A DNA stretch of 64,000 nucleotides from Gemmatimonadota bacterium (GCA_036556205.1 DATBJW010000064.1:45298-109297); one strand, 5' to 3'. Positions 19,877 through 58,755 are shown, counted from the stretch's first letter. Numbers and translations are program-made. Notes: generated by a model from the sequence alone, not told the origin.

Positions 19877-19893
19877 CGGCCGGGTCCTCCCCG

Positions 19894-35407: not shown

Positions 35408-36288
35408 CGGCCCGCGAGCGGCGCACCGTGCGGCTGGGTCTCGTGGCCGCCGCCATGATCCTCCTCTACGTGCTGGCGCTGGACCCGTACCTGACGGCCC
35501 GCGCGAAGACGCGTGACCTGATCGAGCAGCAGCAGGCCCAGCTCTCCCGGCTGGTGGCCCTGGACCGGTCGCTGCCGATCTACCGCCGGCGCCTGCAGGC
35601 GGCGCAGGCCACCTGGGACGCCGAGGTCCGGCCGCGGCTCGTGGCCGGGGACGTGCCCGCCGTCGCCGCTTCGACCCTTTCCAACGAGGTGCGACGCGTC
35701 GCCGCCCAGAGCTTCCTCGACGTCGAGCGCGAGAACGTGCTGGCCGCGACCGAGAAGGACGGCCTCACCGCGATCCCCGTGCAGTTCTCGCTGCGGGGCG
35801 ACATCTACGGCCTGCGGGACTTCCTGGCCGCGCTCGAGTCCACGCGTACGTTCCTGAACCTGCGGGAGCTGCGCGTCACGGCGATCACGGGCGGATTCAA
35901 CCAGGTCCTTCCCGTCACGGCGGCTCCGCTCCAGATGACGGTCACGGTGGAGGGCTACCTGGGCGGGGCGCCGGCCGCGGGTGAGCCGGCGGCCCCGCAG
36001 CCGCCGGGCGCAGCTGCGCCGGCCGGCGCCGAGGGAACGACCGTCACCCCGAGCCCACCGGCCGCGGAGCCTGCTCCGACGAGCTCCGTCGAGCCCGGCC
36101 CGCCGAGCGGCGTCCCTGCCCCTGCCGGGCCTTCGCAGGAGGGAGCGCGGGCGGAACCGGGCGCGGCCCCGCGAGCGGGCCTCGGCGGCGCACCCGAGCG
36201 GCCGGCCGGGGCGCCGGCCGGGGCGGACGTCCGTCGCATCCCGCGCGGCGGCGCGGCCGCGCCCGCTCCGGGGGACGCGCGCCGATGA
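35404..36288 (+). CDS. gspM: GspM/PilO-like type II secretion inner-membrane protein with an extended Pro/Ala-rich C-terminal tail
   Basis: N-terminal TM (LGLVAAAMILLYVLAL), coiled coil, ferredoxin-like periplasmic domain (LTAIPVQFSLRGDIYGLRDFLAALES...LRELRV). ~110-aa low-complexity tail. Confidence 0.6.
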   Translation: MTARERRTVRLGLVAAAMILLYVLALDPYLTARAKTRDLIEQQQAQLSRLVALDRSLPIYRRRLQAAQATWDAEVRPRLVAGDVPAVAASTLSNEVRRVAAQSFLDVERENVLAATEKDGLTAIPVQFSLRGDIYGLRDFLAALESTRTFLNLRELRVTAITGGFNQVLPVTAAPLQMTVTVEGYLGGAPAAGEPAAPQPPGAAAPAGAEGTTVTPSPPAAEPAPTSSVEPGPPSGVPAPAGPSQEGARAEPGAAPRAGLGGAPERPAGAPAGADVRRIPRGGAAAPAPGDARR

Positions 36289-36407
36289 GGCTCCCCGAGG
36301 GACCTGCGCCGGCCCACGCGGGTCGGAACGATCCGGGCGCGCGCATGCACGCGAACGGCAACCCCGGCGAGTCGGGCGAACGAGCGGATCGCCAACGCGG
36401 AGAGACG

Positions 36408-38900
36408 ATGACGCGAGACCTCCCGGACATTCCCAGCGGCCACGGCCGTCGCCGGCCGTGCGTCGCTGCGCGCCGGGCCCTTCTCGCGGCGCTGTTCCTC
36501 GTCTCGGCGCTGGCCGCTCCGGCCGTCGCTCCCGCCCGCGCGCAGGAGCCCGGCGTGCGCCGGGAGGGCGGGCTGGTCTACTTCAACCTCCAGAACGTGG
36601 ACATCCGCTCGGCCCTGGACACGATCAGCCAGGTGCTGGGGATCAGCTACGTGCTCGGCGGAAGCGTGCCCACGGGCACGCCGATCACGATCAGCACCGC
36701 GGCCGGGATCCCCCTCGAGAAGGTGCCCGACCTGCTGGACTCGGTCCTGCGCACCTACAACCTGGCGCTCATCAAGACCGGGGACGTCTTCACGGTCATC
36801 CAGGCCGGCGAGGGCCAGCCGGCGGGGGAAGTGACGCGCACCCAGGTTTACGTCTACTACCTGCGGAACGCCAACGCCGTGGACGTTGCGAACGTGCTCT
36901 CGCAGCTCTTCCAGGGATCAGCTCCCGCCGGCGGGTTCGTGCGCCGCAGCCCTCCTGCGCAGGGCCTCTCGCGGCGCCTCGAGCAACAGAACCTACCCTA
37001 CGCGGACACGCAGCAGAACCCCTTCGGCATGGGCGGGGTGAACGACCAGGTCCCGCAGGCGACCGAGGCGAACACGCCCGTGCGCGTGATCCAGGGCGAG
37101 CTCGTCGGCCAGACGTCGATCGTGCCGGACGAGACCACGAACAGCCTGATCATCAAGACCGCGCCCGAGAACTACCCTTCGATCCAGGAGACGATCGCCA
37201 AGCTCGACATGCGGCCCGCGCAGGTGCTAATCGAGGTCACCATCGCCGAGATCACGCTGGACAAGTCGATGCAGTTCGGCATCGAGTACCTGCTCAGGGG
37301 CAAGACCGAGATCGGCGGCGAGACCGTGCGCGGCGAGCTCGAGCTCCAGAGCCCGACTCCGATTGTGGGCGGCCTGCGCGCGCACGTCTTCGACAGCGGG
37401 AACGTGGACGTGGTCCTGCGGGCGCTGGCCGCGGACGCCCGCGTCAACGTGCTCTCGACGCCGCGCGTGCTCGCCGTCAACAACCACGAGGCTCGGATCC
37501 TGATCGGCTCCGAGGTTCCCTTCGTTCAGTTCTCGCGCGCGACCACGGGCGAGGCCATCGACCAGGTCGTGCAGTACCGCAACGTGGGCCTGGAGCTCAC
37601 CGTCACGCCGCGCATCAACCCTGACCGCTACATCAGCATGGACCTGCTGCAGCAGGTCTCCGCGCTCACGAACGACGTCCTATTCGACGCTCCCATCATC
37701 ACGACGCGGGAGGCGCAGACCTCACTGGTGGTAGGTGACAACCAGACGATCGTGCTGGGCGGGTTGATGGAAGACCGCAAGGAGAAGCGCCGCAACGGGA
37801 TTCCCATCCTGAAGGACATTCCGGTCCTGGGCTGGCTCTTCGGCACCACGTCCGAGCGCACGGTGAAGACCGAGCTGGTCCTCACCCTCACGCCCTACAT
37901 CGTCGAGTCGGACCAGGAGCTGCAGCGCCTGCGCCAGGAGATCGAGTCCCACAGCGAGCTCTACCAGAAGGAGCTCGAGAAGCGCCGCGAGGAGGGGCAC
38001 TTCGTGCCCGGCGACCTGACTCCCGAGCGAATGCAGTCGGCTCCCGTCGCGCCGGCGGGACCGGCACCAACGCCAACGCCGCTTCCGGCCGACACGACCA
38101 CGCTCGCGCCGCGCGACACGGCGCGGGCGGCCGCCATGCCGGCCATGGGCGAGCCGGCCCAGGCGCCCGTGGTCGGCGCAGAGCCGGAGCCCCGCGTCAG
38201 CAGCCTGGAGCGAGGGCCGGAGATCAGCCAGCCGGCTCCCGAGGGCGGCGGGGGGAATGCCGATGCTCCCTCGCCTTCGACCTACGGCGCGCCCTCGTCG
38301 GCGGGAGAGACTCCGGAGGTGAATCAGCCCGCGGCGCCGAGTCCCCCGCCGGCGGAGGCCGTCGAGCCGACTCCAGACGAACCGAGCGGCGAGCAGGTCG
38401 AGACCTTCGAGCCGACTCCGGGCGAGCCGGGTGCCGAGCAACAGGTCGAGACGTTCGAGCCGCCTGCCGGCGAACCGGGCGGCGGGCACGTGGAGACGTT
38501 CGAGGCGCCCGCCGCTGAACCGGGCGGCGGGCACGTGGAGACGTTCGAGGCGCCCGCCGGCGAACCGGGCGGCGAAGCCCGGCAGACGCCACCGTCCCCC
38601 GCCGAGCCGGGAGGCGCCCCTGAGACGCCAGAGCCGCCCCTCGCCGAGCCGGGCGGCCCGAGCTTCCGGGTGCAGGTCATGGCCGTCCCCGATCAGCGCG
38701 CGGCCGAGGACGAAGCCGACCGGCTGCGCGGCATCCTCGGACCGGAGCTCCCGGTCTACGTGGAGCGGGAGCGCCCCTTCTACAAGGTCCGGGTGGGCGA
38801 CTTCCCCACCAAGGACGAAGCGCACGCCGCGGTCGTCAGGCTGCGCGGGCTGGGCTACAACGACGCCTGGACGGTCACCGTTCCGGGCTCGGGCGGCTAG
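36408..38900 (+). CDS. gspD: Type II secretion secretin GspD fused to a C-terminal SPOR domain through a repetitive linker
   Basis: ATG at 36408; signal peptide (ALLAALFLVSALAAPAVAPARAQEP). N0-N3 domains, then the secretin core (VLSTPRVLAVNNHEARILIGSEVPFV...NVGLELTVTPRIN...TIVLGGLMED...IPILKDIPVLGWLFG...VLTLTPYIV). Then a ~230-aa Pro/Glu-rich linker with 4x VETFEAPAGEPGGGH repeats. Then a SPOR-like domain (FRVQVMAVPDQRAAEDEADRLRG...PFYKVRVGDFPTKDEAHAAVVRLRGLGY). Confidence 0.85.
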   Translation: MTRDLPDIPSGHGRRRPCVAARRALLAALFLVSALAAPAVAPARAQEPGVRREGGLVYFNLQNVDIRSALDTISQVLGISYVLGGSVPTGTPITISTAAGIPLEKVPDLLDSVLRTYNLALIKTGDVFTVIQAGEGQPAGEVTRTQVYVYYLRNANAVDVANVLSQLFQGSAPAGGFVRRSPPAQGLSRRLEQQNLPYADTQQNPFGMGGVNDQVPQATEANTPVRVIQGELVGQTSIVPDETTNSLIIKTAPENYPSIQETIAKLDMRPAQVLIEVTIAEITLDKSMQFGIEYLLRGKTEIGGETVRGELELQSPTPIVGGLRAHVFDSGNVDVVLRALAADARVNVLSTPRVLAVNNHEARILIGSEVPFVQFSRATTGEAIDQVVQYRNVGLELTVTPRINPDRYISMDLLQQVSALTNDVLFDAPIITTREAQTSLVVGDNQTIVLGGLMEDRKEKRRNGIPILKDIPVLGWLFGTTSERTVKTELVLTLTPYIVESDQELQRLRQEIESHSELYQKELEKRREEGHFVPGDLTPERMQSAPVAPAGPAPTPTPLPADTTTLAPRDTARAAAMPAMGEPAQAPVVGAEPEPRVSSLERGPEISQPAPEGGGGNADAPSPSTYGAPSSAGETPEVNQPAAPSPPPAEAVEPTPDEPSGEQVETFEPTPGEPGAEQQVETFEPPAGEPGGGHVETFEAPAAEPGGGHVETFEAPAGEPGGEARQTPPSPAEPGGAPETPEPPLAEPGGPSFRVQVMAVPDQRAAEDEADRLRGILGPELPVYVERERPFYKVRVGDFPTKDEAHAAVVRLRGLGYNDAWTVTVPGSGG
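38395..38585 (+). repeat. 45-bp tandem repeat inside gspD (two perfect copies plus two degenerate copies; 15-aa repeat VETFEAPAGEPGGGH)
   Basis: gaaccgggcggcgggcacgtggagacgttcgaggcgcccgcc occurs twice in tandem, flanked by diverged copies (gagccgggtgccgagcaacaggtcgagacgttcgagccgcctgcc). Confidence 0.8.
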
Positions 38901-39834: not shown

Positions 39835-41046
39835 ATGAGACGCGTGCTCGCGCTGCTCTCGCTGTCGGCTCTCGCCGCGTGCCGGGACGCACCCGGCCCC
39901 CTCGCTCCCGGCGACGAAGCGGCGGACGCGAGCCTCTCGGACCAGGCCTCGGACTCCCTGTCGCCCACGCTCGACGCCAGCGCCGAAGGCGTCCTGCCGG
40001 GTCGCTGGATCGTGACGCTCAAGCCCGGGGTGGCCTCTCTCACCGCGGGCACCAGCCTCGGTCTGCGCCCCGACTACGTCTACACGCGGGCGCTCAACGG
40101 CTTCGCGGTTCGGCTCTCCGATTCGGCGGCGCGCGCTCTTTTGCGGGACGCGCGCATCCTCTCGATCGAGCCCGACGGGATCGCCACCGCGACGACGACG
40201 GAGACGAGCGCGCCCTGGGGGCTCGACCGCATCGACCAGCGCAAGCTCCCCGTCGACACCCAATTCCACTACACGGCCACCGGGCAGGGTGTCACGGCCT
40301 ACGTGATCGACACCGGCATCCGGTTCGACCACGCCGAGCTCTCGGGTCGCGCCGTGAGCCTCGTGGACGAGGTCGACGGAGGCTCCGCGGACGACTGTCT
40401 CGGCCACGGCACGCACGTCGCCGGAACGCTGGGCGGGGAGACCTACGGCGTGGCCAAGGACGTGAAGCTGGTCGCCGTGCGCGTGCTGGACTGCAACGGG
40501 TTCGGCACCTGGAGCCAGGTGATCGCCGGTATCGACGCCGTGATCGCCGACCACCAGGCCGGCGTGCCGGCCGTCGCCAACCTCTCGCTGGGCGGGCCCA
40601 AGCGGGCGTCGGTCAACACCGCGATCAAGAACCTGATCGGCGACGGCGTCACGACGGTCGTCGCGGCCGGCAACGGCGACATCTTCGGGTTCCCCCAGAA
40701 CGCCTGCAACGTCTCGCCCGCGGGTGTGCGCCTCGCGATCACCGTGGGCGCCACCGACCAGACCGACACCAAGGCCCCGTGGTCGAACTTCGGCAACTGC
40801 GTGGACTGGTTCGCGCCGGGCGTGGACATCCTCTCGGCCTGGGTCTCGGGTCCCCACGACACGTTGATCCTGAGCGGCACCTCGATGGCCGCACCCCACA
40901 CCGCCGGCGTAGCCGCCCTGTTCCTGCAGGGCAGCCCCTCGGCCTCCCCAGCGGCGGTGCGCAGCGCGCTCTTCGCCAAGACGACGAAGGGCATCGTGAA
41001 GGCCTCGAGCACGGCCACGAACCACCTGCTCTTCACGAAGTACTAG
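39835..41046 (+). CDS. Subtilisin-like serine protease (peptidase S8, proteinase-K-like) with an I9 propeptide and a lipoprotein signal
   Basis: Signal plus lipobox (LSLSALAAC). Inhibitor_I9 prodomain (RWIVTLKPG...). Catalytic triad motifs: D (AYVIDTGI), H (HGTHVAGT), S (GTSMAAPH). RBS AAGGAGG upstream. Confidence 0.9.
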   Translation: MRRVLALLSLSALAACRDAPGPLAPGDEAADASLSDQASDSLSPTLDASAEGVLPGRWIVTLKPGVASLTAGTSLGLRPDYVYTRALNGFAVRLSDSAARALLRDARILSIEPDGIATATTTETSAPWGLDRIDQRKLPVDTQFHYTATGQGVTAYVIDTGIRFDHAELSGRAVSLVDEVDGGSADDCLGHGTHVAGTLGGETYGVAKDVKLVAVRVLDCNGFGTWSQVIAGIDAVIADHQAGVPAVANLSLGGPKRASVNTAIKNLIGDGVTTVVAAGNGDIFGFPQNACNVSPAGVRLAITVGATDQTDTKAPWSNFGNCVDWFAPGVDILSAWVSGPHDTLILSGTSMAAPHTAGVAALFLQGSPSASPAAVRSALFAKTTKGIVKASSTATNHLLFTKY

Positions 41047-42373
41047 TCGAAGGCGCCGGCGGCGCCCCGTCGCAGGCGCCGCCGGGCTCGTCCCTCCCTC
41101 GCGCGCCATCGTCGGCGGCGGCGTCCACGCCCGCCGCCGGCGCCTCGTTTGTCAGCTCCCCCTCCGCGGCGTCCGACCCGTCGTCGAGATTGCCCGGGTC
41201 CTCCGCGCCGACTTCCGGCGCCCCTTCCCGCTCGTCCGGCTCGTCGTCATCGGCGGAAGTGCCGCGCGGGACGGGCACGCCCAGCCGGCGGGCCTCGCGC
41301 CGGACCTTGTTCCGTTCCCAGCCCAGGAGCGCCCCGGCCCGGGTCAGGTTGCCGCGCGCGATCGCCAGCACGCGCCGCAAGTGGTGGCGGAGCACCGTGT
41401 CGGCTCGCAGGTCGGGTGGTCCGTCGTCCTCGTGCATGGCCCAGACCTTCAGGTCCCCGCGCTCGATCCAGCACGAGCGGGCCCGCAGGAAACCGATGCG
41501 AAGCGTCTCGCGCAGCTCGCGCACGTTTCCCGGCCAGGCGTAGGCCAGAAACCAGGATTCCGTCGCCGCGTCCCAACCACGCACGTCCTTGCCGTAAGCC
41601 TCGGCGAACTCGCGCATGAACGTCTCGGCCAGTAGCAGGATGTCCTCGCCCCGGTCGCGCAGAGGCGGCAGCGACAGCTCGATCCCGCTCAAGCGGTAGT
41701 ACAGGTCGCGCCGGAAGCGCCCCTGCGCCACGAGCCGGCCCAGGTTGCGGTTCGTGGCGCTCACGAACTGGACGTTCACGTCCACCGCGCTCGAGGAGCC
41801 CACCGGTCGCACCTGACGGCTCTCGGACACGTAGAGCAGCTTGGCCTGGACGCGGGGGCTGATCTCGGTGATCTCGTCCAGGAACACGGTCCCGCCGCTG
41901 GCCTCGACTATGAGTCCGCGCCGCTCGCTCCGCGCGTCGGTGAATGCTCCCCGCGCGTGGCCGAACAGCTCGCTCTCGAAAAGGGTGGCCGGGATGTTGG
42001 GGCAGGGCACCTCGATGAAGGGCCGAGCCGCGCGGGGGCCTATCGCGTGGTAGAGGCGGGAGAGGAAGCTCTTCCCCGTGCCGGTGGGACCCGTGAGGAG
42101 GAGGTTGATCGAGTAGGCCGAGAGCGACCTCAGCGTGCTCTTGACCTCGAGCATGCCCGGCGAGGAGCCCACGACCTTGTCGAGCGCGTCGGGGACGCCG
42201 ATCCTGTCACCTGCCTCGCGATAGACTTCCGCGTGGGGGCTTGCCGTCGGGTGTCCCAGCACGCCTCTCCCTCCCGATCCCGGGCTCGCGGACGGACGAC
42301 TCAAGCTCCCAACCGGGTCTCCCGCCCCTGCACGACGCGTGCCGAGCAGCAGAGGAGACCGGGCGAAAGGCAT
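41033..42373 (-). CDS. Sigma-54-dependent transcriptional activator (bEBP) without a receiver/sensor domain and with an acidic C-terminal tail
   Basis: AAA+ sigma-54 interaction domain: Walker A (LLTGPTGTGKS), GAFTDA variant (GAFTDARSER), Walker B (GTVFLDEI), arginine fingers, C-terminal Fis-type HTH (LRRVLAIARGNLTRAGALLGWERNKVRR). Only ~70 low-complexity residues precede the AAA+ domain. ~85-aa Asp/Glu-rich tail. Confidence 0.85.
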   Translation of the reverse strand: MPFARSPLLLGTRRAGAGDPVGSLSRPSASPGSGGRGVLGHPTASPHAEVYREAGDRIGVPDALDKVVGSSPGMLEVKSTLRSLSAYSINLLLTGPTGTGKSFLSRLYHAIGPRAARPFIEVPCPNIPATLFESELFGHARGAFTDARSERRGLIVEASGGTVFLDEITEISPRVQAKLLYVSESRQVRPVGSSSAVDVNVQFVSATNRNLGRLVAQGRFRRDLYYRLSGIELSLPPLRDRGEDILLLAETFMREFAEAYGKDVRGWDAATESWFLAYAWPGNVRELRETLRIGFLRARSCWIERGDLKVWAMHEDDGPPDLRADTVLRHHLRRVLAIARGNLTRAGALLGWERNKVRREARRLGVPVPRGTSADDDEPDEREGAPEVGAEDPGNLDDGSDAAEGELTNEAPAAGVDAAADDGARGRDEPGGACDGAPPAPSTSTS

Positions 42374-42525: not shown

Positions 42526-42840
42526 TCAGGCCCCTTGCATCTCCTCGCGGATGGCCTGCGCGAGGTCGCCGTGGCCGTGCGCCAGGGCGCTGGCGAGGCC
42601 GGAACCGAAGGCCAGCTGCGCCGCCTCCGACTCTCCCAGCAAGTGATGGGCGCGCCCTTTCATGCGGTAGGCGGCTCCCACGTCGCCCCCGGGCAGCAGG
42701 GCCACGTAGCGGTCGAGATACGCCAGGGCGCGGGCCGGCTCCCCGGCGTTCAGGAGCTCGTTGCCGGCCATGATCTGCGGCATGGGCTCGTCGGGGTTCT
42801 CGTCGGCCAGGCTCAGGACGGTCTCGAGTCGCGAGCTCAT
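42526..42840 (-). CDS. Small TPR-like helical protein
   Basis: ~105 aa. ATG at 42840 overlaps the stop of the upstream gene (ATGA). Helical repeats (ARALAYLDRYVALLPGG...AAYRMKGRAHHLLGESEAA). Confidence 0.5.
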   Translation of the reverse strand: MSSRLETVLSLADENPDEPMPQIMAGNELLNAGEPARALAYLDRYVALLPGGDVGAAYRMKGRAHHLLGESEAAQLAFGSGLASALAHGHGDLAQAIREEMQGA

Positions 42841-43367
42841 CGCACAGTCGCCTGGCCGGGCGCGAGCGTCACGTCGAAGCGCTCCGCGTCGCGATCCACC
42901 ACGACACCGCCCTCGAGGCCCACGGGGTACACACCGGCCGCGACCGTGCCGGTGCGGAAGCTCATGAGCAGGACCGCGCCCTCCCCGGCCGGGATCGTGG
43001 CCGTCCCCTCGGGATCGAAGAGCAGCAGCCGGGCGCGGCCGAGCTCCAGGTTCTGAACGACGGCTTCGAGCCGCCCGGCGGCGCGCCCTTCGGGTGCCGC
43101 GCCCTCCAGCAGGGGGATCACGTCCGGCGCGCTCACCAGATCCACCTGCAGGCTCGCGACCGGGAGGTTGTTGGCGAGCACGAGAGCGACGCTCACGCGC
43201 TCTCCAGTCCCGGTCGTGAAGCTTGGCGCCGTGATCGTCGCGGCCGGCGTCGGACCCGGCCCTCCCCCGCCGCCGTCGCCGCAAGCGGAGGCGAGGACCG
43301 CTCCGGTGAGGGCCACCGCGAGCAGCGCGGCACCGACAGCGCGCGTGGCGCGCGGCCCGGCGCTCAC
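42837..43367 (-). CDS. Cohesin-like domain lipoprotein
   Basis: GTG start at 43367. Signal plus lipobox (AALLAVALTGAVLASAC). Gly/Pro linker. ~130-aa beta-sandwich resembling cohesin modules (VSVALVLANNLPVASLQVDLVSAPDV...LLLFDPEGTATIPAGEGAVLLMSFRTGTVAAGVYPVGLEGGVVVDRD). Start overlaps the stop of the dockerin gene (GTGA). Confidence 0.5.
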   Translation of the reverse strand: MSAGPRATRAVGAALLAVALTGAVLASACGDGGGGGPGPTPAATITAPSFTTGTGERVSVALVLANNLPVASLQVDLVSAPDVIPLLEGAAPEGRAAGRLEAVVQNLELGRARLLLFDPEGTATIPAGEGAVLLMSFRTGTVAAGVYPVGLEGGVVVDRDAERFDVTLAPGQATVR

Positions 43368-45655
43368 CGCGCGGGCCTCCCGAGCGCCGGCGCACCGGCG
43401 CCGAGCGCGGCGACGGCACTCGCGGAAGCGAGCGGGCGCAGGCTTCCCCCGCGCGTGGCCGCCGTCACGCCCTCCAGCCGCGGCGCCGTGCCGGCGAAGC
43501 GGAAGAGCGGCACGCCCAGCGGCAGGTTCGCCCCCGCCAGGACGAGCACCCGGAACCGCCCGCCTCGCACGCCGGCCGTCACGACCTGGCCCGCGCTCGA
43601 GACCAGGCGCGGGGGCGTGGCGAGGCCCGCCGGGAGCCGGAAGGTGACCTCGAGCGCGCCCAGCGCGAGGTCCGGGCCAGGCGCGGCCGAGCCGTCGCTG
43701 GCCGCGCGCCGCCGGCCGCCCGGCATGGCGCCCGCGCCCGGCGCTTCCACCAGGCGAAAGGCGGCATCGTACCCGCCATGTCCATCCGGCTCGTCGTAAC
43801 GGTATTCGGGGATCTGGGCCTGCTTGCTCAAGCTGCTGCGCCCCAGCGCGCCGGGTGCGAGCAGGTTCCGGTCGAGGACCCGGTCCACGAGCCCCACCAG
43901 GTCGCCCACGTCGAGCTGCCCGTTGCCGTTCACGTCGGCGGCGCGCGTCTCCGAGTCCGAGAGGCTCCCGCGGCCGGCCAGGACCCCCAGCGCGCGCTGC
44001 AAGTCGGCAGCGTCCGAGCGCCCGTCGCCGTCCAGGTCCCCGGTCGCGAAGGGTGCGGCGGCCGCGGAAAGGGCGGCCCCCGAGATCACGTACGCCTCGC
44101 CGGCGTCCAGGAACAGGTTGCCGCGGCCGTCGCCGATCATGGCGTTCACGACCACGTCGCCGGCGCCGTCCTGGTCCACGTCGGCGCCGATCAGGGAGTA
44201 GGAGAGGATGTCGCCCGGATCGGCGGCCAGCACGACGCCGAAGGGCAGGGTCGCCAGGGGAGGATGGTCCAGCTGGATCTCCGCCGGCAGGCGCCCGGCG
44301 GGCGAGCGGACGAAGAAGAGCGCTCCGGTGCGCTCGCGCGCGTCGCTCCCCAGGAAGGTGCCGGTGGGGCTGCCGATGAAGACGTCGTCGCGCCCGTCGC
44401 CGTCGATGTCGATGAAGCGCGCCGTGTCGCCCGTGATCCCGCCCGCCGTGGGTCCGTAGATGACGCTCACTCCCGCCGGCGGCTGGCGCAGGTCGATGCG
44501 CGCGCCGTGCAGCGCCGGCCCTCCGTAGACGAGGTACGCCTCGCCCGCGCTGTTGCGCAGGTTCTCGAACCCGTCGGCCGTGAGCGCCCCGATCAGGACG
44601 TCGCCGAAGCCGTCGCCGTCGGCATCGCCCACGTTGACCTCCTCGCCGGCGAAGTCGCCGGGGTCGGCGCCGTAGACGATGGCCGCATCCGCGGGCGGGT
44701 CGGCGAGATCGACGCTCCCTCCGCGCGTCGGCGTGAAGACGACCGCCACCTCGCCCGCCCGCGCCCGCGTCTCGTCGGGGCCGTCGGCTCCCTCGACGGA
44801 GCCGTTGAAGACGACGACCGCCGCCCGGTTCAGCGCCGAGCCCACGACGAGGTCGGCCACACCGTCGGCGTCGATGCGTCCGGCGTGGACGGCGCTGCCC
44901 GCCTTGTCCTGGCTGTCGGCGCCGTGGACGGTGAAGACCCGTCCGGCCGCGTCCAGCGCGCCCACCGAGGTCGTCCCGGGCACCAGGTCGCCCCCGCCGT
45001 AGAGCACGTACGCGGCCCCGGCGCTCTCCCGGTCTCCCGCCGGCCCGTCCACGTCGGGCGCCCCGACCAGCACGTCCCCGAAGCCGTCGCCGTCCACGTC
45101 CACCACGTCCACCCAGACGCCGAAGTGGTCGCCCCCCGTCGCGCCGGCGATGCGGAGCACGTTCGGAGAAGCGAGCACGTCGATCTCGGGAGCCAGCGCG
45201 GGCGAGCCGAAGACCACGTAGACCGTTCCCGTCCCCACCTGCCCGGACACGACGACGTTGGGCGCGCCCAGGACGAGGTCCGCGAATCCGTCGCCGTTCA
45301 CGTCCCCGCCGGCGCACTCGACACCCAGCGACTGGATGCCCGAGATCCGGGTCACGACGCCCGGCTGGGCGAGGGCCTCCTGCTGGCCGGCGTTGACGGA
45401 GGGCGCGAAGAAGAGGAAGGCCTCGGAGGCGTTGAAGGCGCAGAGGAGCACGTCGTCGCGCCGGTCGCCGTTCACGTCTCCGCCGCCGAGCGGGAGCCCG
45501 AAGTTGCCGCCGCTGATCGTGCGCAGGAGGAGGTCTCGCTGCCCGGCGGGGTGAAGGGCCGTGTCCCATCTGAGAACGCTCTGCGCCTCCAGCGGGCGCG
45601 CGGCGGCGGCCGGCCCGAGCAGGGCGAGGAGAGCGATCCTTCGAAGGGGGAGCAC
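43364..45655 (-). CDS. Secreted FG-GAP (integrin-alpha-like) repeat beta-propeller protein carrying a type-I dockerin module
   Basis: GTG start at 45655 gives a signal peptide (LPLRRIALLALLGPAAAARPLEA). Multiple FG-GAP/VCBS repeats (GDVNGDGFADLVLGAP, DVDGDGFGDVLVGAP, DADGDGFGDVLIGA, DIDGDGRDDVFIGSP, DVDQDGAGDVVV). Dockerin duplicated segment (DLDGDGRSDAADLQRALGVLAGR / DVNGNGQLDVGDLVGLVDRVL). The C-terminal ~130 aa are beta-rich with no assignment. The 45913 ORF-track start is rejected. Confidence 0.75.
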   Translation of the reverse strand: MLPLRRIALLALLGPAAAARPLEAQSVLRWDTALHPAGQRDLLLRTISGGNFGLPLGGGDVNGDRRDDVLLCAFNASEAFLFFAPSVNAGQQEALAQPGVVTRISGIQSLGVECAGGDVNGDGFADLVLGAPNVVVSGQVGTGTVYVVFGSPALAPEIDVLASPNVLRIAGATGGDHFGVWVDVVDVDGDGFGDVLVGAPDVDGPAGDRESAGAAYVLYGGGDLVPGTTSVGALDAAGRVFTVHGADSQDKAGSAVHAGRIDADGVADLVVGSALNRAAVVVFNGSVEGADGPDETRARAGEVAVVFTPTRGGSVDLADPPADAAIVYGADPGDFAGEEVNVGDADGDGFGDVLIGALTADGFENLRNSAGEAYLVYGGPALHGARIDLRQPPAGVSVIYGPTAGGITGDTARFIDIDGDGRDDVFIGSPTGTFLGSDARERTGALFFVRSPAGRLPAEIQLDHPPLATLPFGVVLAADPGDILSYSLIGADVDQDGAGDVVVNAMIGDGRGNLFLDAGEAYVISGAALSAAAAPFATGDLDGDGRSDAADLQRALGVLAGRGSLSDSETRAADVNGNGQLDVGDLVGLVDRVLDRNLLAPGALGRSSLSKQAQIPEYRYDEPDGHGGYDAAFRLVEAPGAGAMPGGRRRAASDGSAAPGPDLALGALEVTFRLPAGLATPPRLVSSAGQVVTAGVRGGRFRVLVLAGANLPLGVPLFRFAGTAPRLEGVTAATRGGSLRPLASASAVAALGAGAPALGRPAR

Positions 45656-45707: not shown

Positions 45708-46382
45708 CTACAAGACGACCGCGGCCTGCCGGCGCTCGCGCAGCAGCGCCAGGAGATGGCGCCGGAAGACCGGGTCCGCGAGCACGCCGTGCAGGTAGGT
45801 GCCCATCGCCGCGTAGTCGCGCGTCGCGAGGCCGAGGGGGCAGGCCGCGCTCCCGCGGGCCGCTTCGTGGAAGAGCGGCGCGGCGTCGCCGCTGCGGAGG
45901 ACGGATTGGCCACCGTGGGTCTCGAACCCCGACACTTCGGCCCCGGCGGGCAGGAACGCCGCCGCCCCGGTCGCGCGCACCGGCTCGTCGATCTTCTCGC
46001 GCGTGAACGTGGTCACCAGGTCGAAGATCGCGAGCCCGCTCGCCCGCTCGGCGCCGCCCTCGAGCCGCTCCGGGTCGAGGAGCTCGCTGCCCATCATCTG
46101 GAAGCCGCCGCAGATCCCGAACAGGAGCGCCCCCCCGGCCGCGGCACGGCGCACGGCCGCCTCCATTCCCGTCGCGCGCAGGTGCGCCAGGTCGGGCAGC
46201 GTCGCCTCGGAGCCGGGGAGCACGACCATGTCGGCAAGGCCGAGGTCCTCGGGGCGGTCCACGAAGGCCAGGTCCACGCCCGGCTCGGCCGCGAGGGCCT
46301 CGTACTCCTCGAGGACCGCGCTTTGAGGCAGGCGGACGATGCGGACGACGAGCCGGACCTCTGGATTCATGCTACCCTTCAT
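45708..46382 (-). CDS. Stand-alone glutamine amidotransferase domain protein (CobB/CobQ-type GATase1)
   Basis: LFGICGGFQMMG (nucleophile-cysteine motif of the CobQ/CobB GATase family) and a C-terminal histidine (YLHGVL). ~225 aa with no synthetase domain attached. Start could be M at 46382 or 46370. Confidence 0.7.
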   Translation of the reverse strand: MKGSMNPEVRLVVRIVRLPQSAVLEEYEALAAEPGVDLAFVDRPEDLGLADMVVLPGSEATLPDLAHLRATGMEAAVRRAAAGGALLFGICGGFQMMGSELLDPERLEGGAERASGLAIFDLVTTFTREKIDEPVRATGAAAFLPAGAEVSGFETHGGQSVLRSGDAAPLFHEAARGSAACPLGLATRDYAAMGTYLHGVLADPVFRRHLLALLRERRQAAVVL

Positions 46383-46555
46383 GAGCCTGAAGGTCGTCTC
46401 GTGACCGAGCTCACGCCTTGCGCGGGAGTCGGCGGCGGCGAGGCGTGAAGCTCGCGGCGACGGAGCGATCGGGCGTTCGCCCGCTCTCACTTCCGCGTCC
46501 CCGCCGGCGTCTTACATTCTACGACACCGCCCGGCCTCAAACCAAGGAGACCCGT

Positions 46556-47281
46556 ATGCCTCGAGCCCGCGCCCTTCGCGTCGCAACGCTTCTCTGCGCG
46601 GCCGCCGCGCTCCCCCTGGCCGTCTCGGCCTGCAGACGCGAGCACGAGAACGGCGAGGAGGCCAAGCCGCCGCCCTCGCGATCCAGCGAGCTCGCGCGCG
46701 ACGCGGGCGAGAAGCCGCAGCTGGTCATGGACAAGCTCGAGATCCGGGCGGGAAGCAACGTGGTCGACGTGATCGCCGGCGGGGGCTACTACACCTACCT
46801 GCTCTCCGAGCGCGTGGGCCCGGCCGGGAAGGTCTACGCGACCGGCGCCGAAGGTGTGACCCAACGCATGAACGAGGGGGACCTCAAGGGAAAATCGAAC
46901 ATCACGGTCGTGAAGGACGTGGCTGACATCCCGGCCGGCTCGCTGGACGCGGTCCTCATCAATCGCGCCTACCACCTGATCAACAAGCCCGGCGAGACTT
47001 TCTTCCCCGCGCTCCAGAAAGCACTCAAGCCCGGCGGGCGGATCGGGATCGTCGAGGTCCGGCTGGGGCAGCCCACGGGCCACGACATGAAGACGCACCG
47101 CATGGGCGAGCAGACCGTGCGGGAGGAGGTCGAGGCAGGCGGGTTCACGCTCGTCGAGTCGTCGGCGCTGCTGGCCAACCCGGCCGACCCGCGCACCGAT
47201 TTCATGGAGGGCAAGCGCCACCTGGCCGACCGGATGTTCCTGATCTTCGAGAAGCCCCCCGCGGCCGCCGCGGCGCGCTGA
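46556..47281 (+). CDS. Class I SAM-dependent methyltransferase-like lipoprotein
   Basis: ATG at 46556 with AAGGAGA upstream. Lipoprotein signal (LLCAAAALPLAVSAC). Methyltransferase motif I (VVDVIAGGGYYT) and post I/II (LDAVLINRAYHLI...LKPGGRIGI). Confidence 0.7.
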   Translation: MPRARALRVATLLCAAAALPLAVSACRREHENGEEAKPPPSRSSELARDAGEKPQLVMDKLEIRAGSNVVDVIAGGGYYTYLLSERVGPAGKVYATGAEGVTQRMNEGDLKGKSNITVVKDVADIPAGSLDAVLINRAYHLINKPGETFFPALQKALKPGGRIGIVEVRLGQPTGHDMKTHRMGEQTVREEVEAGGFTLVESSALLANPADPRTDFMEGKRHLADRMFLIFEKPPAAAAAR

Positions 47282-47323: not shown

Positions 47324-49357
47324 CTACGCCGCGCGCTTCGCCGGCGGCGTTTCCTTCTTGGGGCTCGTTCCCTTTCCCGGCGCCGCTCCCTTCCCCGGGG
47401 CGCCGGCCTTCCCCGAGTCCGCCGCCGCCGGGTTCGTCTCGGGTTGAATCTCCCGCACGCCGGCCTGGACGTTGGCGCTGTACCAGAAGGCCCGCGGCGT
47501 CACCAGGAGCTTGCGCGGCTTGACGGCGATGTGGACCTCGCGGCCTTCGACCTCCACCGACTCGCTCACGCTGGCCGGCAAGTCGAGCGTGGGGACGATC
47601 TTGGTGGGCAGCTTGATGTTGAAGCCTTTGGTCAAGACCTTGGTCAACAACGCCACGATCTTGTCGGGGCTCATCACCTTCATTCCGATCCCGCATTTCC
47701 CCAGGTCGTTCAGCTCCGACATCGTCGTGCGCACCTTGGCCCACGTCGCCTCCGACGGAGAGACCGAGACGCGGATCTTCTGCACGGGGAACTGGGGCGA
47801 GGCCACGATCCTGTCCCCCACGGCAGCCAGCACGAGGTCGCCCGTCACGTTGTAGCTTCGGGGGACCGCGTTGCCGTCCACGTCGAGCGTCTTCTGGAAG
47901 TCGCCGCAGGCGGCGCCCGAGACGCCCTGCGCGTCCCAAGTGAAGGCCACCGTGGCCGTGCCGTAGCCCGAGACAGCTCGCACGGGCACCGAGACGCGGA
48001 GCCGGTTCTCGCCCACGACGCTGACCAGCGGCGGGTCGGCGGCAAGGATCGCCTGAATGCGCTTGACGGTGACGTGGACCTTCCAGCTCCCGGCCGTGAT
48101 CATCTTGCCGAAAGGTCCTTTGACCTTGACCGTCTCGCCCTCGTCCACCTCTTCCCCGAGGTTGATGTCCAGCTCGACCCGCTTCAAGAAACGCCTCGTC
48201 GCCTCCTGAACCAGGTGGTTGATCAGCTCGGGCTTGATCCCCACGGCCACCTCGCCGGGGTCGGCCGCGATCGCCCACAGGAGCGTGTCCGCGGCCGTCG
48301 CGACCTTGATCGAGTCGGTGAGGGCTTCGAACTGGCTCCGCAGCTCCTTCATGCGCGGGGTCATGCTGTCGGGCGGAGCGCCCGCGGATGACATGCGGCT
48401 CTCGACCGACTCCATCGCCGCGCCGACCTCTCCAGCCGCGGAGGTGTCGGGCTCCTGGCCCGGGTCCGGCTTCTGGAGCGGCAGAGGGACGCGATCCTCG
48501 AGCACAGCGCCGTCGGAACCCAGCGAGCGGCTGGCCCATCGCACGGCCCCGGCCGCCCGGGCGGCCGGCTTCGTCTCCTCGGCCTTTCCCCCGGTGCTGT
48601 CGGCTTGACCGGGCTCTTGCACGTCGACTCCGATCGTGACCCAGACCTTCCCCGCCACGACGAGCACTTCCTCGACTGCGACGCGCAGAGGGACGACCGC
48701 GGGCGCGATCTTCACCTCACCGGCGGGCCCCACCCCGGGGATCTTCACCTGCTGCTCGAGCGCGACCGGGATCTCGAGGTTCGAGGCCAGGGAGTTGAGC
48801 TTCTCCAGGGGCAGGCTGACCAGGGCGTCGACCAGGCCCTGAACCGGGGCCGACACGCCCATGACGGCCACCTTCGGCACCTCGAGGCCGATCACGTCCA
48901 CGCGGGCGCGCAGCACGCCCGTCTTGGGGTCGATGCCCGTCACCTGCAGCACGCCGTAGACCTTCACGTCCGCGGCCACGGTCTCGTCTTCGCCTCCCAC
49001 CAGGCTGCCGCGGCCGTTCAGCTCGACGAGCGCGAAATTGGCCCGGAAGTCCACCTTGGCCGAGTTCACCTGGATGCGATACTTGTCGTCGATGACGCGC
49101 TCGTAGGGCGTCGCCTCGTCCAGCAGCTGGCCGACCAGCCGCTGGTCGACCGTGACCAGCACCTGGTCGAAATCGAGGATCTTGCCTTTCCGTGTCGTCT
49201 CGAGCAGGGACTGGGCGCCCTTGACCCGCCGCTCGAGGATCGTCTCCTGCAACTCCACGCCGGACGTCCCGCCTCCCTTTCCACGACACCCCGCCAGGTC
49301 GAAGGCGGCTCCGGCCAGAAGGAGGGCCTGGAGGAGAACGATCGGGACGCTGCGCAT
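47324..49357 (-). CDS. Large lipoprotein of unknown function, paralog A (internally duplicated)
   Basis: 677 aa. Lipobox (LLLAGAAFDLAGC). Shares extended similarity with the next gene (e.g. TPYERVIDDKYRIQVNSAKVDFRANFALVELNGRGSLV vs TPYERVVDDTYRVRVDSAAVEFQAGFALVRLDGRASLV). The C-terminal half repeats the N-terminal theme. Confidence 0.65.
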   Translation of the reverse strand: MRSVPIVLLQALLLAGAAFDLAGCRGKGGGTSGVELQETILERRVKGAQSLLETTRKGKILDFDQVLVTVDQRLVGQLLDEATPYERVIDDKYRIQVNSAKVDFRANFALVELNGRGSLVGGEDETVAADVKVYGVLQVTGIDPKTGVLRARVDVIGLEVPKVAVMGVSAPVQGLVDALVSLPLEKLNSLASNLEIPVALEQQVKIPGVGPAGEVKIAPAVVPLRVAVEEVLVVAGKVWVTIGVDVQEPGQADSTGGKAEETKPAARAAGAVRWASRSLGSDGAVLEDRVPLPLQKPDPGQEPDTSAAGEVGAAMESVESRMSSAGAPPDSMTPRMKELRSQFEALTDSIKVATAADTLLWAIAADPGEVAVGIKPELINHLVQEATRRFLKRVELDINLGEEVDEGETVKVKGPFGKMITAGSWKVHVTVKRIQAILAADPPLVSVVGENRLRVSVPVRAVSGYGTATVAFTWDAQGVSGAACGDFQKTLDVDGNAVPRSYNVTGDLVLAAVGDRIVASPQFPVQKIRVSVSPSEATWAKVRTTMSELNDLGKCGIGMKVMSPDKIVALLTKVLTKGFNIKLPTKIVPTLDLPASVSESVEVEGREVHIAVKPRKLLVTPRAFWYSANVQAGVREIQPETNPAAADSGKAGAPGKGAAPGKGTSPKKETPPAKRAA

Positions 49358-49433: not shown

Positions 49434-51314
49434 TCAGCGGCCGGGCGCCCCCAGGGAGTCGGCGCCCACCGGCGCTCGGATCGGCGCCGGCCCGCCGGGC
49501 TCGGCCTCGACCGCGGCCGTGTACCAGAGCACGGACGGCGCTGTTCGCAGCTGCTGGGGTTGCACGTCGAGCAGGATCGTCCGGTCCTCGAACTCGACGG
49601 ACTCGCTCACGCGGGCCGGGATCTCGACCGTCTTCAAGATACTGCGCGGGAGCTTGACCTTGAAACCCTTCTGCTGCCCGATCTCCTCGAGCTTCTCGGT
49701 CAGGTCGTCGACGTCCACCACCCCGCACTTGCCGCTCTCGTTCTGGGATTCGATGATCGCCCGGACCCTGGCCCACGACTCGGGCGCGAGGTCCACCTTG
49801 ATGCGAAACTTCTCGCGGGGGAAGTCCGGCCGCGCCAGGATCTCCTCGCCCTGGGCCGTCAGCACGTAGTCCCCCTTCACCTGATAGGTTCCCGGCAGGA
49901 CCACGCCCGAGATGTCGAGTGTGGTCGCGAAATCGTCGCATACGATCTCCACCAGCGACTTCGCGTCCCAGGTGAAGTCGAGGGTGCCGCTCCCCTGACC
50001 CCGCACGATGGACACCGGCAGCGTCAGGTGGATCCGGTCCGGCTCCCTGAAGGCGAGGCGCGGAGTCCCGGCCCTGAGCACTCCGCGCAGGCGCTCGATG
50101 TGGAGCACCACGCTCCAGTCACCGGCCTTGATGTCGCCGACCGGCGTCTCGACCTCGAGAGGCTTCGTTTCGTCCACCGGCTTCTCGGGGGTGAGGTCGA
50201 GCTCGACGTGATCCAGGTAGACGGCCGCCACCTGCCGGGCCAGCAGCTCGAGCAGCGCCGGCCGCACGAACAGCGCCACGTCGCCGGTGTCGGCCACCGC
50301 CTTCAGGAACAGCGTGTCGCCCGCGGTGAGCGCGGTGATGCTGTCCTCCAGGGCCGCGTAGGTCGCCCGCAGCTCGGCCTCGCGCCGACGTCGCTCCAGC
50401 GAGTCCGCGCGCTGTCCTCCGAGCGGCTGCCCCATGCCGAGCGTCGCGAAGGCGGCCGAGCCCGGCGTCGGGCTGCTCGCCAGGCCCTCCAGCGTGACTC
50501 CTTGGCCCCTTCTCACACGCGGCGCGCCCGCGGACCCGAGGCCGCCGTATTGGACCGTGTCGGGTGGCACGGCCACCGCGATCGTGATCCAGAGCTTCCG
50601 GGCGATCACCTTCACGCCCTGGACGGAGACCCGCAGGGGGATCCTGGCGGCCGGGATGCGGACCCGGTCGTCCTCGTCGCCCGCGTTCACCCGGGGGAGC
50701 TTCAACGCCTCGTCGAAGCGGACCGGGATCTCGAGTTCGGAGTTGAACACGTCGAACTTCGAGATCTCCTCGCGGGTGAGGTCCTCGATCAGTCGGCGAA
50801 CCGGCGGCTCCATGCCGAGCAGGCCGACCCGCCGGGCCGTGAAGGCGATGATGTTCAAGCGCGCGCGCAGGACTCCGCTGGCCGGGTCCACCCCCCGCAC
50901 GTCCAGGCCGCTGTAGAGGCTGACGTCGGCGAACGCTCCGTCGGGGGCGGCCCGCACCAGGCTCGCGCGACCGTCCAATCGCACGAGCGCGAAGCCGGCC
51001 TGGAACTCGACGGCCGCGGAGTCCACTCGAACCCGATACGTGTCGTCGACGACGCGCTCGTAGGGCGTGACCGACGAGATCAGGTCCCCGATCAGCCGCT
51101 CGTCCACGACCGCCACCATCTGCTCGAAGGGGACCAGCGGACCTTGCCGGGCGGCGGCGAGAAGGCGTCGGGCGCCCTCGATCCGGCGCTCGAGCACGGC
51201 TTGCCTGGGAGGGACGCGCGGCTGGGAGGGGCGGCGGCACCCGCTCAGCGGCACGAGCAGCAGCGCTATCAGGGCCCCGCCGACGAGCGGGACGCGGGAT
51301 CCAAGCCCTCTCAT
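49434..51314 (-). CDS. Large lipoprotein of unknown function, paralog B
   Basis: 626 aa. Lipobox (LVPLSGC). Homologous along its whole length to 47324..49357. Confidence 0.65.
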   Translation of the reverse strand: MRGLGSRVPLVGGALIALLLVPLSGCRRPSQPRVPPRQAVLERRIEGARRLLAAARQGPLVPFEQMVAVVDERLIGDLISSVTPYERVVDDTYRVRVDSAAVEFQAGFALVRLDGRASLVRAAPDGAFADVSLYSGLDVRGVDPASGVLRARLNIIAFTARRVGLLGMEPPVRRLIEDLTREEISKFDVFNSELEIPVRFDEALKLPRVNAGDEDDRVRIPAARIPLRVSVQGVKVIARKLWITIAVAVPPDTVQYGGLGSAGAPRVRRGQGVTLEGLASSPTPGSAAFATLGMGQPLGGQRADSLERRRREAELRATYAALEDSITALTAGDTLFLKAVADTGDVALFVRPALLELLARQVAAVYLDHVELDLTPEKPVDETKPLEVETPVGDIKAGDWSVVLHIERLRGVLRAGTPRLAFREPDRIHLTLPVSIVRGQGSGTLDFTWDAKSLVEIVCDDFATTLDISGVVLPGTYQVKGDYVLTAQGEEILARPDFPREKFRIKVDLAPESWARVRAIIESQNESGKCGVVDVDDLTEKLEEIGQQKGFKVKLPRSILKTVEIPARVSESVEFEDRTILLDVQPQQLRTAPSVLWYTAAVEAEPGGPAPIRAPVGADSLGAPGR

Positions 51315-57393: not shown

Positions 57394-58755
57394 CTACGCC
57401 TCACTCCCCGGATTCTTTCCCGCCAATCGGCGCGAGAAGAGGTATTGCTCGGCGATCTCTCGCCCTCGGGGGGTGAGCAGACTCTCATTCGTGCGCCTGT
57501 CGCGTCGCAGGTGGGCCAGGCGGCGACCATGCAGCGCCCCGATCAGACGGGGTTCAGAACCCATCTGTTCGACGAGCCGCTTCAGATCCTGACTATTGAT
57601 CCTGCCTCCACGCTCCAGGATGCTTCCGAGAATTGATGCGTTGCGGGAGTCATCCTGGATGACGGCCTCGCTGGAGCTCGATCCCATCAGGTAGATCCGT
57701 CCGCGACGCTCGCCGCGCGCTTCGATCAGTCCCTTTCTCGCCAGCAGCGTCAAGTGGTAGCGGACGGTGCGCGAGGGCAGCCCCAAAGCTTCGGCGATTT
57801 GAGGTGCGGTGGCTCGAGCCATTCTTCGGACCAGATCAAGGATGCGCCCCTGAATATTCGAGAGACGGAGCATGGAAGTCTCGACGCCGAGCTTGGCCAA
57901 GAGGTTCTGTTGCTGCGCACGTAGGGCGCGCAAGAAGAAGACAAGCCAGTCCGTGAAGTCGCTCGGATTCGAGCGCATCGCTAGCTGAGAGCCACGCAGC
58001 GCGGCGTAATAGGCCAGCTTGTTGTCCTCGATCACTCGCTCGAGCGAAGCGTAGGGCACATAGTCGTAGCCGGCACGCAGGAGGAGCAGCGCGGTCAGTG
58101 CTCGCGCCAGCCGGCCGTTGCCGTCCTGGAAGGGGTGGATCGCCAGAAACTCCACAATGAAGCGTGCGATTGCGACCAGTGGATGAATGCGGTCGTCCGC
58201 GAGGATCGCACTGGTTTCAGCGACCAATTCCTTCATGAGTCTCGGCGTATCGAAGGGAGCTGCCGTTCGAAAAACGACCTCTTGGCGTCCGTCGGGATGG
58301 CGGGCCTGGACGTGGTTTTCGTGCTTCTTGTATTCACCTCGATGCCAGGCGTCGCTTTCCGAGTGCCCGAGCAGGATGCCGTGGAGCTGCTTGAGAAACC
58401 GCTCCTCGAGAGGAATGTCCTGATAGTGATCGAAGATGGTCTGGAGTAGCTCTCCGTACCCGTGAACCTCGGCCTGGCCGCGGGCTCGGAACGTGTCTAC
58501 CGAGACCCCCGCGAGAATCTGCGCGACCTCCGCATCGCTGAGTTCAGCCCCTTCGATTCGAGTCGAGCTGGCTGTCGATTCGATCGTCGTTACCTGGCGG
58601 AGCGCTCCCAGACGCTCAGCGGTGATCTCACGCAGCTTTCGCCAGTGTCCCTTGAACTCATCGATCTGTCCGAGCAGTCGAAGCAGCTCGGTCAGTCTTT
58701 CGGGGTCGGCTGTCGGAGTGAGCTTCTCCATGCCAGTTGCCAATATTGTTGCCAA
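57394..58755 (-). CDS. Fic/Doc family protein (putative AMPylator/toxin-like) with a C-terminal winged-helix DNA-binding domain
   Basis: Fic motif HPFxxGNGR present as HPFQDGNGRLARALT. C-terminal wHTH (ILDLVRRMARATAPQIAEALGLPSRTVRYHLTLLARKGLIEARGERRGRIYL). GC content clearly lower than neighbouring genes. Start may be the TTG at 58755 or the ATG at 58731. Confidence 0.85.
   Translation of the reverse strand: MATILATGMEKLTPTADPERLTELLRLLGQIDEFKGHWRKLREITAERLGALRQVTTIESTASSTRIEGAELSDAEVAQILAGVSVDTFRARGQAEVHGYGELLQTIFDHYQDIPLEERFLKQLHGILLGHSESDAWHRGEYKKHENHVQARHPDGRQEVVFRTAAPFDTPRLMKELVAETSAILADDRIHPLVAIARFIVEFLAIHPFQDGNGRLARALTALLLLRAGYDYVPYASLERVIEDNKLAYYAALRGSQLAMRSNPSDFTDWLVFFLRALRAQQQNLLAKLGVETSMLRLSNIQGRILDLVRRMARATAPQIAEALGLPSRTVRYHLTLLARKGLIEARGERRGRIYLMGSSSSEAVIQDDSRNASILGSILERGGRINSQDLKRLVEQMGSEPRLIGALHGRRLAHLRRDRRTNESLLTPRGREIAEQYLFSRRLAGKNPGSEA

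Follow-up and report, generated by a model that had tools for sequence, protein, structure and literature searches.

A conserved three-gene cassette of Gemmatimonadota as a probable 1:1 cohesin–dockerin tether for a secreted propeller protein

Genes and domains at the locus

We describe three overlapping minus-strand genes in a 64-kb stretch of DNA from a Gemmatimonadota bacterium (GCA_036556205.1, DATBJW010000064.1:45298-109297; "the window" refers to this whole stretch of 64,000 nucleotides (nt)). In order of transcription they encode a secreted protein made of a beta-propeller, a dockerin and a C-terminal beta domain, which we call the cargo, a small lipoprotein with a single cohesin domain, which we call the anchor, and a tetratricopeptide repeat (TPR) protein. 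The positions of all features are collected in Table 1. Long spurious open reading frames (ORFs) abound in the window because its GC content is 71–72%, and the true reading frames were therefore picked with a frame plot of third-position GC (GC3). This analysis backs the three genes as consecutive, with the coding frame switching exactly at both junctions. The cargo gene starts with a GTG that has GGAGG upstream, and the cohesin gene has GGGAGG 8 nt upstream of its own GTG. The GTG of the cohesin gene (43365-43367) overlaps the TGA of the cargo gene (43364-43366), and the cohesin gene in turn overlaps the TPR gene by ATGA. A search for a sigma-70-like promoter of the cassette found none, the sigma-54 motif TGGC-N7-TTGC is absent from its vicinity, its single match in the window being at chance level, and terminator-like matches around the cassette are not significant. 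NCBI has a protein 100% identical to the cargo, from a Gemmatimonadota metagenome-assembled genome (MAG), and a public protein collection holds an identical copy of the lipoprotein of 176 amino acids (aa).

The largest part of the cargo is the propeller. It follows a predicted signal peptide whose hydrophobic character is shared by the orthologues, with an equivalent N-terminus ending in AQ. In the full-length AlphaFold2 (AF2) model, which has a mean predicted local distance difference test (pLDDT) score of 85.9, residues 1-22 fall below 50 and the propeller region lies mostly above 90, and every blade carries a DxDxDG calcium loop. Pfam FG-GAP matches the protein in five stretches with 98.4 bits, and the top Foldseek matches of the model consist entirely of integrin alpha propellers, with E values of about 1e-15 to 1e-16. 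In homologues of the propeller found elsewhere, the place of the dockerin is taken by TIG, FlgD_ig or cytochrome c tails. As the integrin propellers bind ligands at their top face with Ca2+, and as the homologues swap localisation or accessory tails, we suggest by analogy that the propeller most probably binds ligands or serves in adhesion, with its tail determining where it is placed.

The dockerin that follows has its calcium loops, DLDGDGRSDAAD and DVNGNGQLDVGD, 34 residues apart. Both loops are EF-hand-like, with D or N at positions 1, 3, 5 and 9 and D at position 12, and both lead into a helix; AF2 predicts helices at residues 549-559, 567-573 and 583-593. The paired loop motif occurs nowhere else in a six-frame translation of the window, and the segment is conserved in the orthologues of the cargo. 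Pfam Dockerin_1 (PF00404) matches residues 539-587 with 21.0 bits (E 3.8e-4), short of the gathering threshold of 22.9. Among the orthologues, the one in locus L006 scores 28.0 bits, four others (P0057, P0058, P0059 and P0061) have PF00404 in their precomputed Pfam annotation, and one bears the NCBI name 'dockerin type I domain-containing protein'. The best match to the segment among solved sequences is chain 8x39 (E 2e-5), which has calcium loops in two repeats and is deposited as 'serine protease'; calmodulins rank next, at E about 1e-3.

The cargo has a third folded part, a C-terminal beta domain, which is absent from the earlier description of the protein as propeller plus dockerin. AF2 places its strands between residues 618 and 741, with pLDDT of about 77-90 in the core, and two disordered insertions or loops interrupt the sandwich. 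The domain is conserved in all orthologues of the cargo. No sequence in Pfam or the PDB matches it, and neither Por_Secre_tail nor FlgD_ig matches the C-terminal region of the cargo or of 8 orthologues at E<=10. Alignment with hhalign gave E 0.06 against the cohesin family and E 0.49 against the FlgD_ig tail of the subtilases described below, neither of which is significant, and with these values the readings of the domain as a second cohesin or as a C-terminal sorting domain of the type IX secretion system (T9SS) are unsupported. As a separate observation, low-complexity inserts rich in Gly and Tyr, which differ in length, immediately precede this domain in the orthologues.

The 176-aa protein encoded by the second gene begins with the signal peptide of a predicted lipoprotein, with R6, R9, a hydrophobic core and L25-A-S-A-C29, which we take to fit the lipobox pattern of PROSITE PS51257. 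Cys29-Gly30, the predicted lipidation site, varies little or not at all among 15-23 family members. Searched alone, the protein has no Pfam match at E<=1, neither to SLH nor to any other domain, and nothing meaningful among NCBIfam models or PDB sequences. An exhaustive phmmer search of 1.84 billion representative sequences returned 44 relatives, namely about a dozen small proteins (117-190 aa) and a set of large proteins in which the domain occurs 2-8 times. The large relatives are Pfam Cohesin proteins; for P0023 and P0024, phmmer and Pfam Cohesin mark coinciding stretches. The lipobox Cys-Gly is conserved in an alignment of 14 small members, which have a Gly-rich tether and a single domain; PF00963 is matched by nine of these 14 (best E 4.9e-14), and the family profile matches solved cohesins from Ruminococcus flavefaciens and Clostridium acetobutylicum with E 4e-5 to 4e-4. 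With an alignment of 15 sequences as input, AF2 gives a model with nine main strands and pLDDT of 94-98 throughout the domain. The best 50 Foldseek matches of this model in the PDB are all cohesins (best E 3.7e-11, target template modelling (TM) score 0.80-0.82). They include OlpA and OlpC (3ul4 and 4dh2; ranks 6, 7 and 17) and the non-cellulosomal cohesin 2xdh of Archaeoglobus fulgidus (rank 13), and modules of Clostridium perfringens are also found among the fold matches. By its predicted fold, with the family profile pointing the same way, the folded part of the lipoprotein is a cohesin; it is type-I-like and sits on a flexible Gly/Pro tether. It is the only cohesin in the window, which likewise has a single dockerin.

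These results bear out what the first-pass annotation of the window had proposed for the two proteins, namely a secreted 763-aa FG-GAP propeller protein (the Pfam score, the AF2 propeller and the integrin alpha fold matches agree on this), a duplicated dockerin segment (the strings quoted for it are present, and Dockerin_1 scores them as given above), a cohesin gene that starts within the stop codon of the cargo gene (the GTGA is in the sequence), and a lipoprotein domain that looks like a cohesin (a family profile reaching E 4e-5, and the AF2 model with cohesins alone in the Foldseek top 50).

Outside the window, the cohesin domain has its closest large relatives in P0004, P0013, P0020 and P0024, which are scaffoldin-like. 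They carry 2-7 Pfam cohesin stretches, many InlB B-repeats (Flg_new_2) and a T9SS Por_Secre_tail, so that such multi-cohesin proteins appear to be T9SS-secreted in other lineages.

Conservation, sister cassettes and neighbouring genes

The trio recurs in six further loci (L001, L006, L011, L012, L039 and L040). In a tblastn comparison with L001, L006, L011 and L012, identity was 56-91% for the propeller protein, 43-86% for the cohesin protein and 58-90% for the TPR protein, and the propeller orthologues of L039 and L040 are 69% and 59% identical. L011 and L012, as well as a further locus, L013, come from Gemmatimonadota MAGs. The TPR gene directly follows the cohesin gene in all six loci, and the 4-nt overlap of the cargo and cohesin genes is kept in five of them (L001, L006, L012, L039 and L040). 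The cargo and cohesin genes are thus conserved as neighbours, mostly in overlap, as a cognate pair was expected to be. A genome scan that started from the cohesin alignment matched 144 stretches, none of which was confirmed by tblastn; a scan with the propeller protein succeeded.

The more distant small cohesin lipoproteins are 28-31% identical to that of the window, and all have PF00963 in their precomputed annotation. The loci inspected for this branch were L002/L003, L004, L005, L007/L008, L009/L010, L041 and L042, and directly upstream of every inspected lipoprotein gene lies a gene for a dockerin-bearing subtilase or for its C-terminal fragment. The subtilase has roughly 950 aa and consists of a Peptidase_S8 domain, a dockerin, a beta-rich module of about 150 aa and a tail resembling FlgD_ig or Por_Secre_tail. 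In L042 the subtilase and cohesin genes overlap by 4 nt. Between the propeller class and the subtilase class, the dockerins can be aligned gap-free; their loops are equally spaced, and both have 'LD.GDL' in the second loop. Across both cargo classes, a lipoprotein cohesin immediately follows a dockerin-bearing exported protein in 14/14 inspected loci. Nothing argues more strongly for a joint function of the two modules, and for an exchangeable cargo, than this adjacency with two classes of cargo. As the same type of anchor gene follows dockerin-bearing proteases in the related loci, the arrangement looks like a reusable cassette of a cargo and a membrane hook.

Two further features of the subtilase-type loci are recorded here. 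A PLDc_2 gene (phospholipase D or cardiolipin-synthase-like) directly follows the cohesin gene in four independent loci, at the place where the propeller-type cassette has its TPR gene. The beta-rich module between dockerin and FlgD_ig (in the L002 gene at 5101-7971, residues about 720-867; also in L004, L005, L009 and L042) gives a profile that aligns in register with the cohesin family, with E 0.047.

The TPR protein has no signal peptide, and its match to an SctY-like NCBIfam model is weak (24.5 bits vs a cut-off of 70); that it acts as a cytoplasmic chaperone is a guess. On the other side of the trio, the gene for a stand-alone glutamine amidotransferase of the GATase_3 type is the upstream neighbour of the cargo gene. 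It is directly upstream in L001, L013 and L040 as well, and in L011, L012 and L039 other genes, spanning 2-5 kb, lie between it and the cassette; its membership in the cassette is uncertain. Its orthologue in L001, called at 220 aa, aligns from residue 41, and the true start in the window is therefore probably downstream of 46490. No MurT-like or CobQ N-terminal partner of the enzyme lies nearby. In the window, as in L001, L012 and L039, a sigma-54 activator gene comes next after the cassette, with no -24/-12 motif near the cassette; the encoded protein has no recognisable receiver or sensor domain. Beyond it, on the opposite (plus) strand, lie genes of a type II secretion system (T2SS), and this neighbourhood comprises GspK, a GspC-like protein, a secretin with a SPOR domain, a pseudopilin and a secreted subtilase. 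It recurs in L001 and L039 and is absent in L040, where genes for a DinB-type polymerase and a histidine kinase come after the TPR gene.

The first-pass annotation had placed the pair in one minus-strand operon with the TPR and GATase_3 genes, immediately beside the T2SS. The coupling to the TPR gene stands, with its ATGA overlap and its conservation. The operon with GATase_3 is only loosely conserved, and the adjacency of the T2SS is not conserved. Because the placement of both varies, the conserved unit is made of the three overlapping genes and not of an operon beside a T2SS.

Further upstream in the window lie two tandem minus-strand paralogues (47324-49357 and 49434-51314; 677 and 626 aa) that are about 38% identical and have no Pfam match. 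They are kept upstream of the cassette in L001, and a related gene occurs in L013. A minus-strand ORF at 46487-47221 was considered as a neighbouring gene and rejected, the true gene there being a plus-strand methyltransferase-like ORF. The GC content dips to 0.654 at 18001-20000 and to 0.636 at 58001-60000, on a background of 0.70-0.75.

Table 1. Features of the cassette and its surroundings. Positions are counted in the window, except in the last row, where they are counted in the loci named.
Feature	Position	Strand	Basis
Cargo gene, 763-aa secreted protein (FG-GAP propeller, dockerin, C-terminal domain)	43364-45655	-	GC3, Pfam
Sec signal peptide, residues 1-24, MLPLRRIALLALLGPAAAARPLEA, putative cleavage before Q	45584-45655	-	translation
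Seven-bladed FG-GAP / integrin-alpha-like beta-propeller, residues 27-524	44084-45577	-	AF2, Foldseek, Pfam
Dockerin, residues 536-597, two 12-residue Ca loops, helix after each	43865-44050	-	Pfam, AF2, orthologues
C-terminal beta-sandwich, family unassigned, residues 616-742	43430-43810	-	AF2, orthologues
GTGA overlap, cargo stop and cohesin start	43364-43367	-	sequence
Anchor gene, 176-aa cohesin lipoprotein	42837-43367	-	GC3 frame switch, Shine-Dalgarno sequence
Lipoprotein signal peptide, lipobox L-A-S-A-C29, then Gly/Pro-rich tether (residues 30-41)	43281-43367	-	translation
Single cohesin domain, residues 42-176, nine-strand beta-sandwich	42840-43244	-	AF2, Foldseek, family profile
TPR protein gene, 104 aa, third cassette member	42526-42840	-	weak Pfam TPR matches
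Stand-alone GATase_3 (CobQ-type), 52 nt upstream of cargo gene	45708-46490	-	Pfam 128.8 bits
Sigma-54 activator	41033-42373	-	AAA+ from residue 68
T2SS secretin (GspD-like) with C-terminal SPOR peptidoglycan-binding domain	36285-38900	+	same architecture in L001, L039
PLDc_2 genes of subtilase-type loci	L002 8524-9840; L009 2367-3668; L041 639-1916; L042 1901-3178

Tethered cargo and other readings

The gene pair and its domains are confirmed as an observation, and their reading as a cognate anchor-ligand pair is supported. We give a probability of roughly 0.6 to the fuller reading, namely that the three genes are a conserved cargo-anchor cassette of Gemmatimonadota in which a dedicated 1:1 cohesin-dockerin tether holds the propeller on the membrane of a diderm cell. 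In established cohesin-dockerin pairs, a dockerin that has folded around two Ca2+ ions binds the cohesin. By analogy, after Sec export of the proteins and lipidation of the anchor, both proteins would fold with Ca2+, the dockerin of the cargo around two ions, and this dockerin would bind the cohesin of the lipoprotein 1:1. The propeller would then be suspended at the membrane by a lipid-anchored, flexible tether about a dozen residues long. The overlap of the genes would keep the production of both partners in step, and the unit of anchor and dockerin would be modular, a subtilase being held in the relatives by a lipoprotein cohesin of this family together with a homologous dockerin.

Several points weigh against this proposal. 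In the window proteins, dockerin and cohesin each stay below their Pfam threshold. A propeller-dockerin homologue from Binatia (40% identity) has no adjacent cohesin gene, so that in this propeller family a dockerin can occur without a cohesin encoded next to it, and the true partners of the cohesin and the dockerin may be encoded beyond the 64-kb window. The conserved, cytoplasmic TPR protein has no place in a simple model of anchor and cargo. Furthermore, the complex could be periplasmic, which makes 'surface display' an assumption, and with a C-terminal domain that matches no T9SS-type sorting domain, the cargo has no established route across the outer membrane.

Cohesin-dockerin systems are typically many-to-one, as in cellulosomes, and the lipoprotein might accordingly be a docking site shared by several proteins, or the real partner of the dockerin might be encoded elsewhere, with the adjacency reflecting co-regulation and no exclusive 1:1 pair. 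The Binatia homologue without a local cohesin would fit this, as would a second large subtilase near the cassette in L002, which has the same FlgD_ig tail. However, no dockerin is detectable in that second subtilase, and the window has one cohesin and one dockerin only. The overlap of the genes, the adjacency in all 14 loci and the fact that each cargo type has its own divergent cohesin (28-31% between the branches) indicate dedicated pairs, and we consider a shared or distant partner unlikely. A different role for the lipoprotein would be that of a transient periplasmic escort, which holds, pilots or silences the cargo until a secretion system (the T2SS, or a T9SS for the subtilases) releases it, in resemblance to pilotins or tethered protease inhibitors. 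This reading could draw on the T2SS that adjoins the cassette in the window itself and in L001 and L039, on the tails of the subtilase cargos that resemble FlgD_ig or Por_Secre_tail, on the small conserved TPR protein, whose weak match to a chaperone-like protein of the type III secretion system hints at export handling, and on the suggestion that a T9SS may exist in Gemmatimonadetes (PMC11285876). On the other hand, L040 keeps the trio and loses the adjacency to the T2SS, and the C-terminal domain of the propeller cargo matches no T9SS sorting domain. Known cohesin-dockerin complexes are moreover very tight and static, and we know of no pilotin or escort that uses a cohesin fold. We hold a transient escort to be slightly less likely than a shared or distant partner.

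Least probable among the readings considered is that the two proteins do not interact directly at all. The EF-hand pair would then only stabilise the cargo, the lipoprotein, a generic beta-sandwich, would bind another partner, for example a glycan, and the genes would be neighbours for the sake of regulation. That both modules of the window fall under the Pfam cut-offs is compatible with this, and so are the calmodulin EF-hands that match the dockerin segment at E about 1e-3 and the existence of cohesin-like folds without known dockerin partners, such as the C. perfringens modules among the fold matches. The orthologues, however, pass the Pfam thresholds, and the same two types of module adjoin each other with two unrelated cargos, a recurrence that would be puzzling if the modules themselves were not functionally linked.

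We thus favor a dedicated tether for the propeller. A wider proposal would be that lipoprotein-cohesin and dockerin form a general, cargo-swappable surface attachment of Gemmatimonadota, and perhaps of other diderms of the Fibrobacterota-Chlorobiota-Bacteroidota (FCB) group, in which dedicated cohesins hold unrelated secreted proteins, such as adhesive propellers and subtilases, non-covalently on the outer membrane once they have been secreted. We put this forward tentatively, as a possibility with the odds against it. If true, such an attachment would replace the anchoring by covalent linkage to anionic lipopolysaccharide (A-LPS) or by sortase-type mechanisms that is used elsewhere, and no natural cohesin-dockerin display system would have been described in a Gram-negative envelope before it; the cytoplasmic TPR protein would serve as its accessory factor.

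Comparison with known systems

The individual parts described here are not new, since domain-level annotation of them already stands in databases. The conserved, coupled cassette and the swapping of its cargo appear to be undescribed within the literature searched: a full-text search found no paper that joins dockerin, cohesin and FG-GAP, and no natural lipoprotein cohesin in a Gram-negative envelope, the matches on Gram-negative display being engineered systems. Peer et al. in 2009 reportedly catalogued the non-cellulosomal modules, as far as this can be checked, without describing a coupled gene pair of a cargo and a lipoprotein anchor. Non-cellulosomal cohesins and dockerins are widespread, and for hardly any of them has a partner or a role been identified. 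The cassette could give such pairs a concrete role. As the overlapping gene pair is small and has a sister set with another cargo, partner specificity and function are directly testable with two recombinant domains, and the cassette would be a source of new orthogonal cohesin-dockerin pairs outside the clostridia, in a lineage of high GC content.

A cellulosome is defined by a scaffoldin with at least two cohesins, in combination with glycoside hydrolases fused to dockerins (PMC13487519). The arrangement in the window, with its single cohesin and without a glycoside hydrolase or other carbohydrate-active enzyme (CAZyme) domain in the cargo, falls outside this definition, and the first-pass annotation was right to set the system apart from cellulose degradation. 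It resembles in this respect the non-cellulosomal modules of Peer et al. (2009), which reportedly lie on mostly non-catalytic proteins unrelated to cellulose degradation (cited in PMC13487519). The A. fulgidus cohesin 2xdh, which ranks 13th among the fold matches of the lipoprotein domain, is of this non-cellulosomal kind. A newly described reduced system with one cohesin and one dockerin, below the definition of a cellulosome, is ClcC-ClcD of Cellulosilyticum lentocellum (PMC13487519). The 1:1 stoichiometry of the modules is the same as that proposed here. The ClcC-ClcD dockerin, however, is fused to a cellulase of glycoside hydrolase family 5 (GH5) and its cohesin protein has a carbohydrate-binding module (CBM) (PMC13487519), whereas the cargo here is a non-catalytic propeller, or a subtilase in the relatives, and the cohesin protein is a lipoprotein.

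With regard to its tail, the cargo can be compared with T9SS cargo proteins of Bacteroidota, which are likewise secreted proteins with a small C-terminal Ig-like beta-sandwich, and the subtilase relatives do match FlgD_ig or Por_Secre_tail. The C-terminal domain of the window cargo matches neither, its alignment with the subtilase tail reaching only E 0.49. The surface attachment of T9SS cargo is a covalent linkage to A-LPS and does not involve a cohesin. The propeller itself resembles those of integrin alpha chains and of bacterial FG-GAP/VCBS proteins in its seven FG-GAP blades with calcium-binding loops. In contrast to integrin alpha, the cargo has no beta-subunit partner, no thigh or calf domains and no transmembrane helix, and its attachment to the membrane would be indirect, through the dockerin.

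A functional parallel to the proposed tether is found in OlpA and OlpC of Clostridium thermocellum, in which one cohesin on an envelope anchor holds an individual dockerin-bearing protein. Their anchors are SLH domains on a Gram-positive wall, whereas a lipobox and a tether, with no SLH match, would do this in a diderm here. The cargos of OlpA and OlpC are enzymes acting on plant cell walls, and to our knowledge their genes do not form overlapping pairs with those of their cargos. If the complex of the propeller protein and its cohesin is on the cell surface, diderms would naturally use the kind of lipoprotein-plus-cohesin display that engineers have built artificially.

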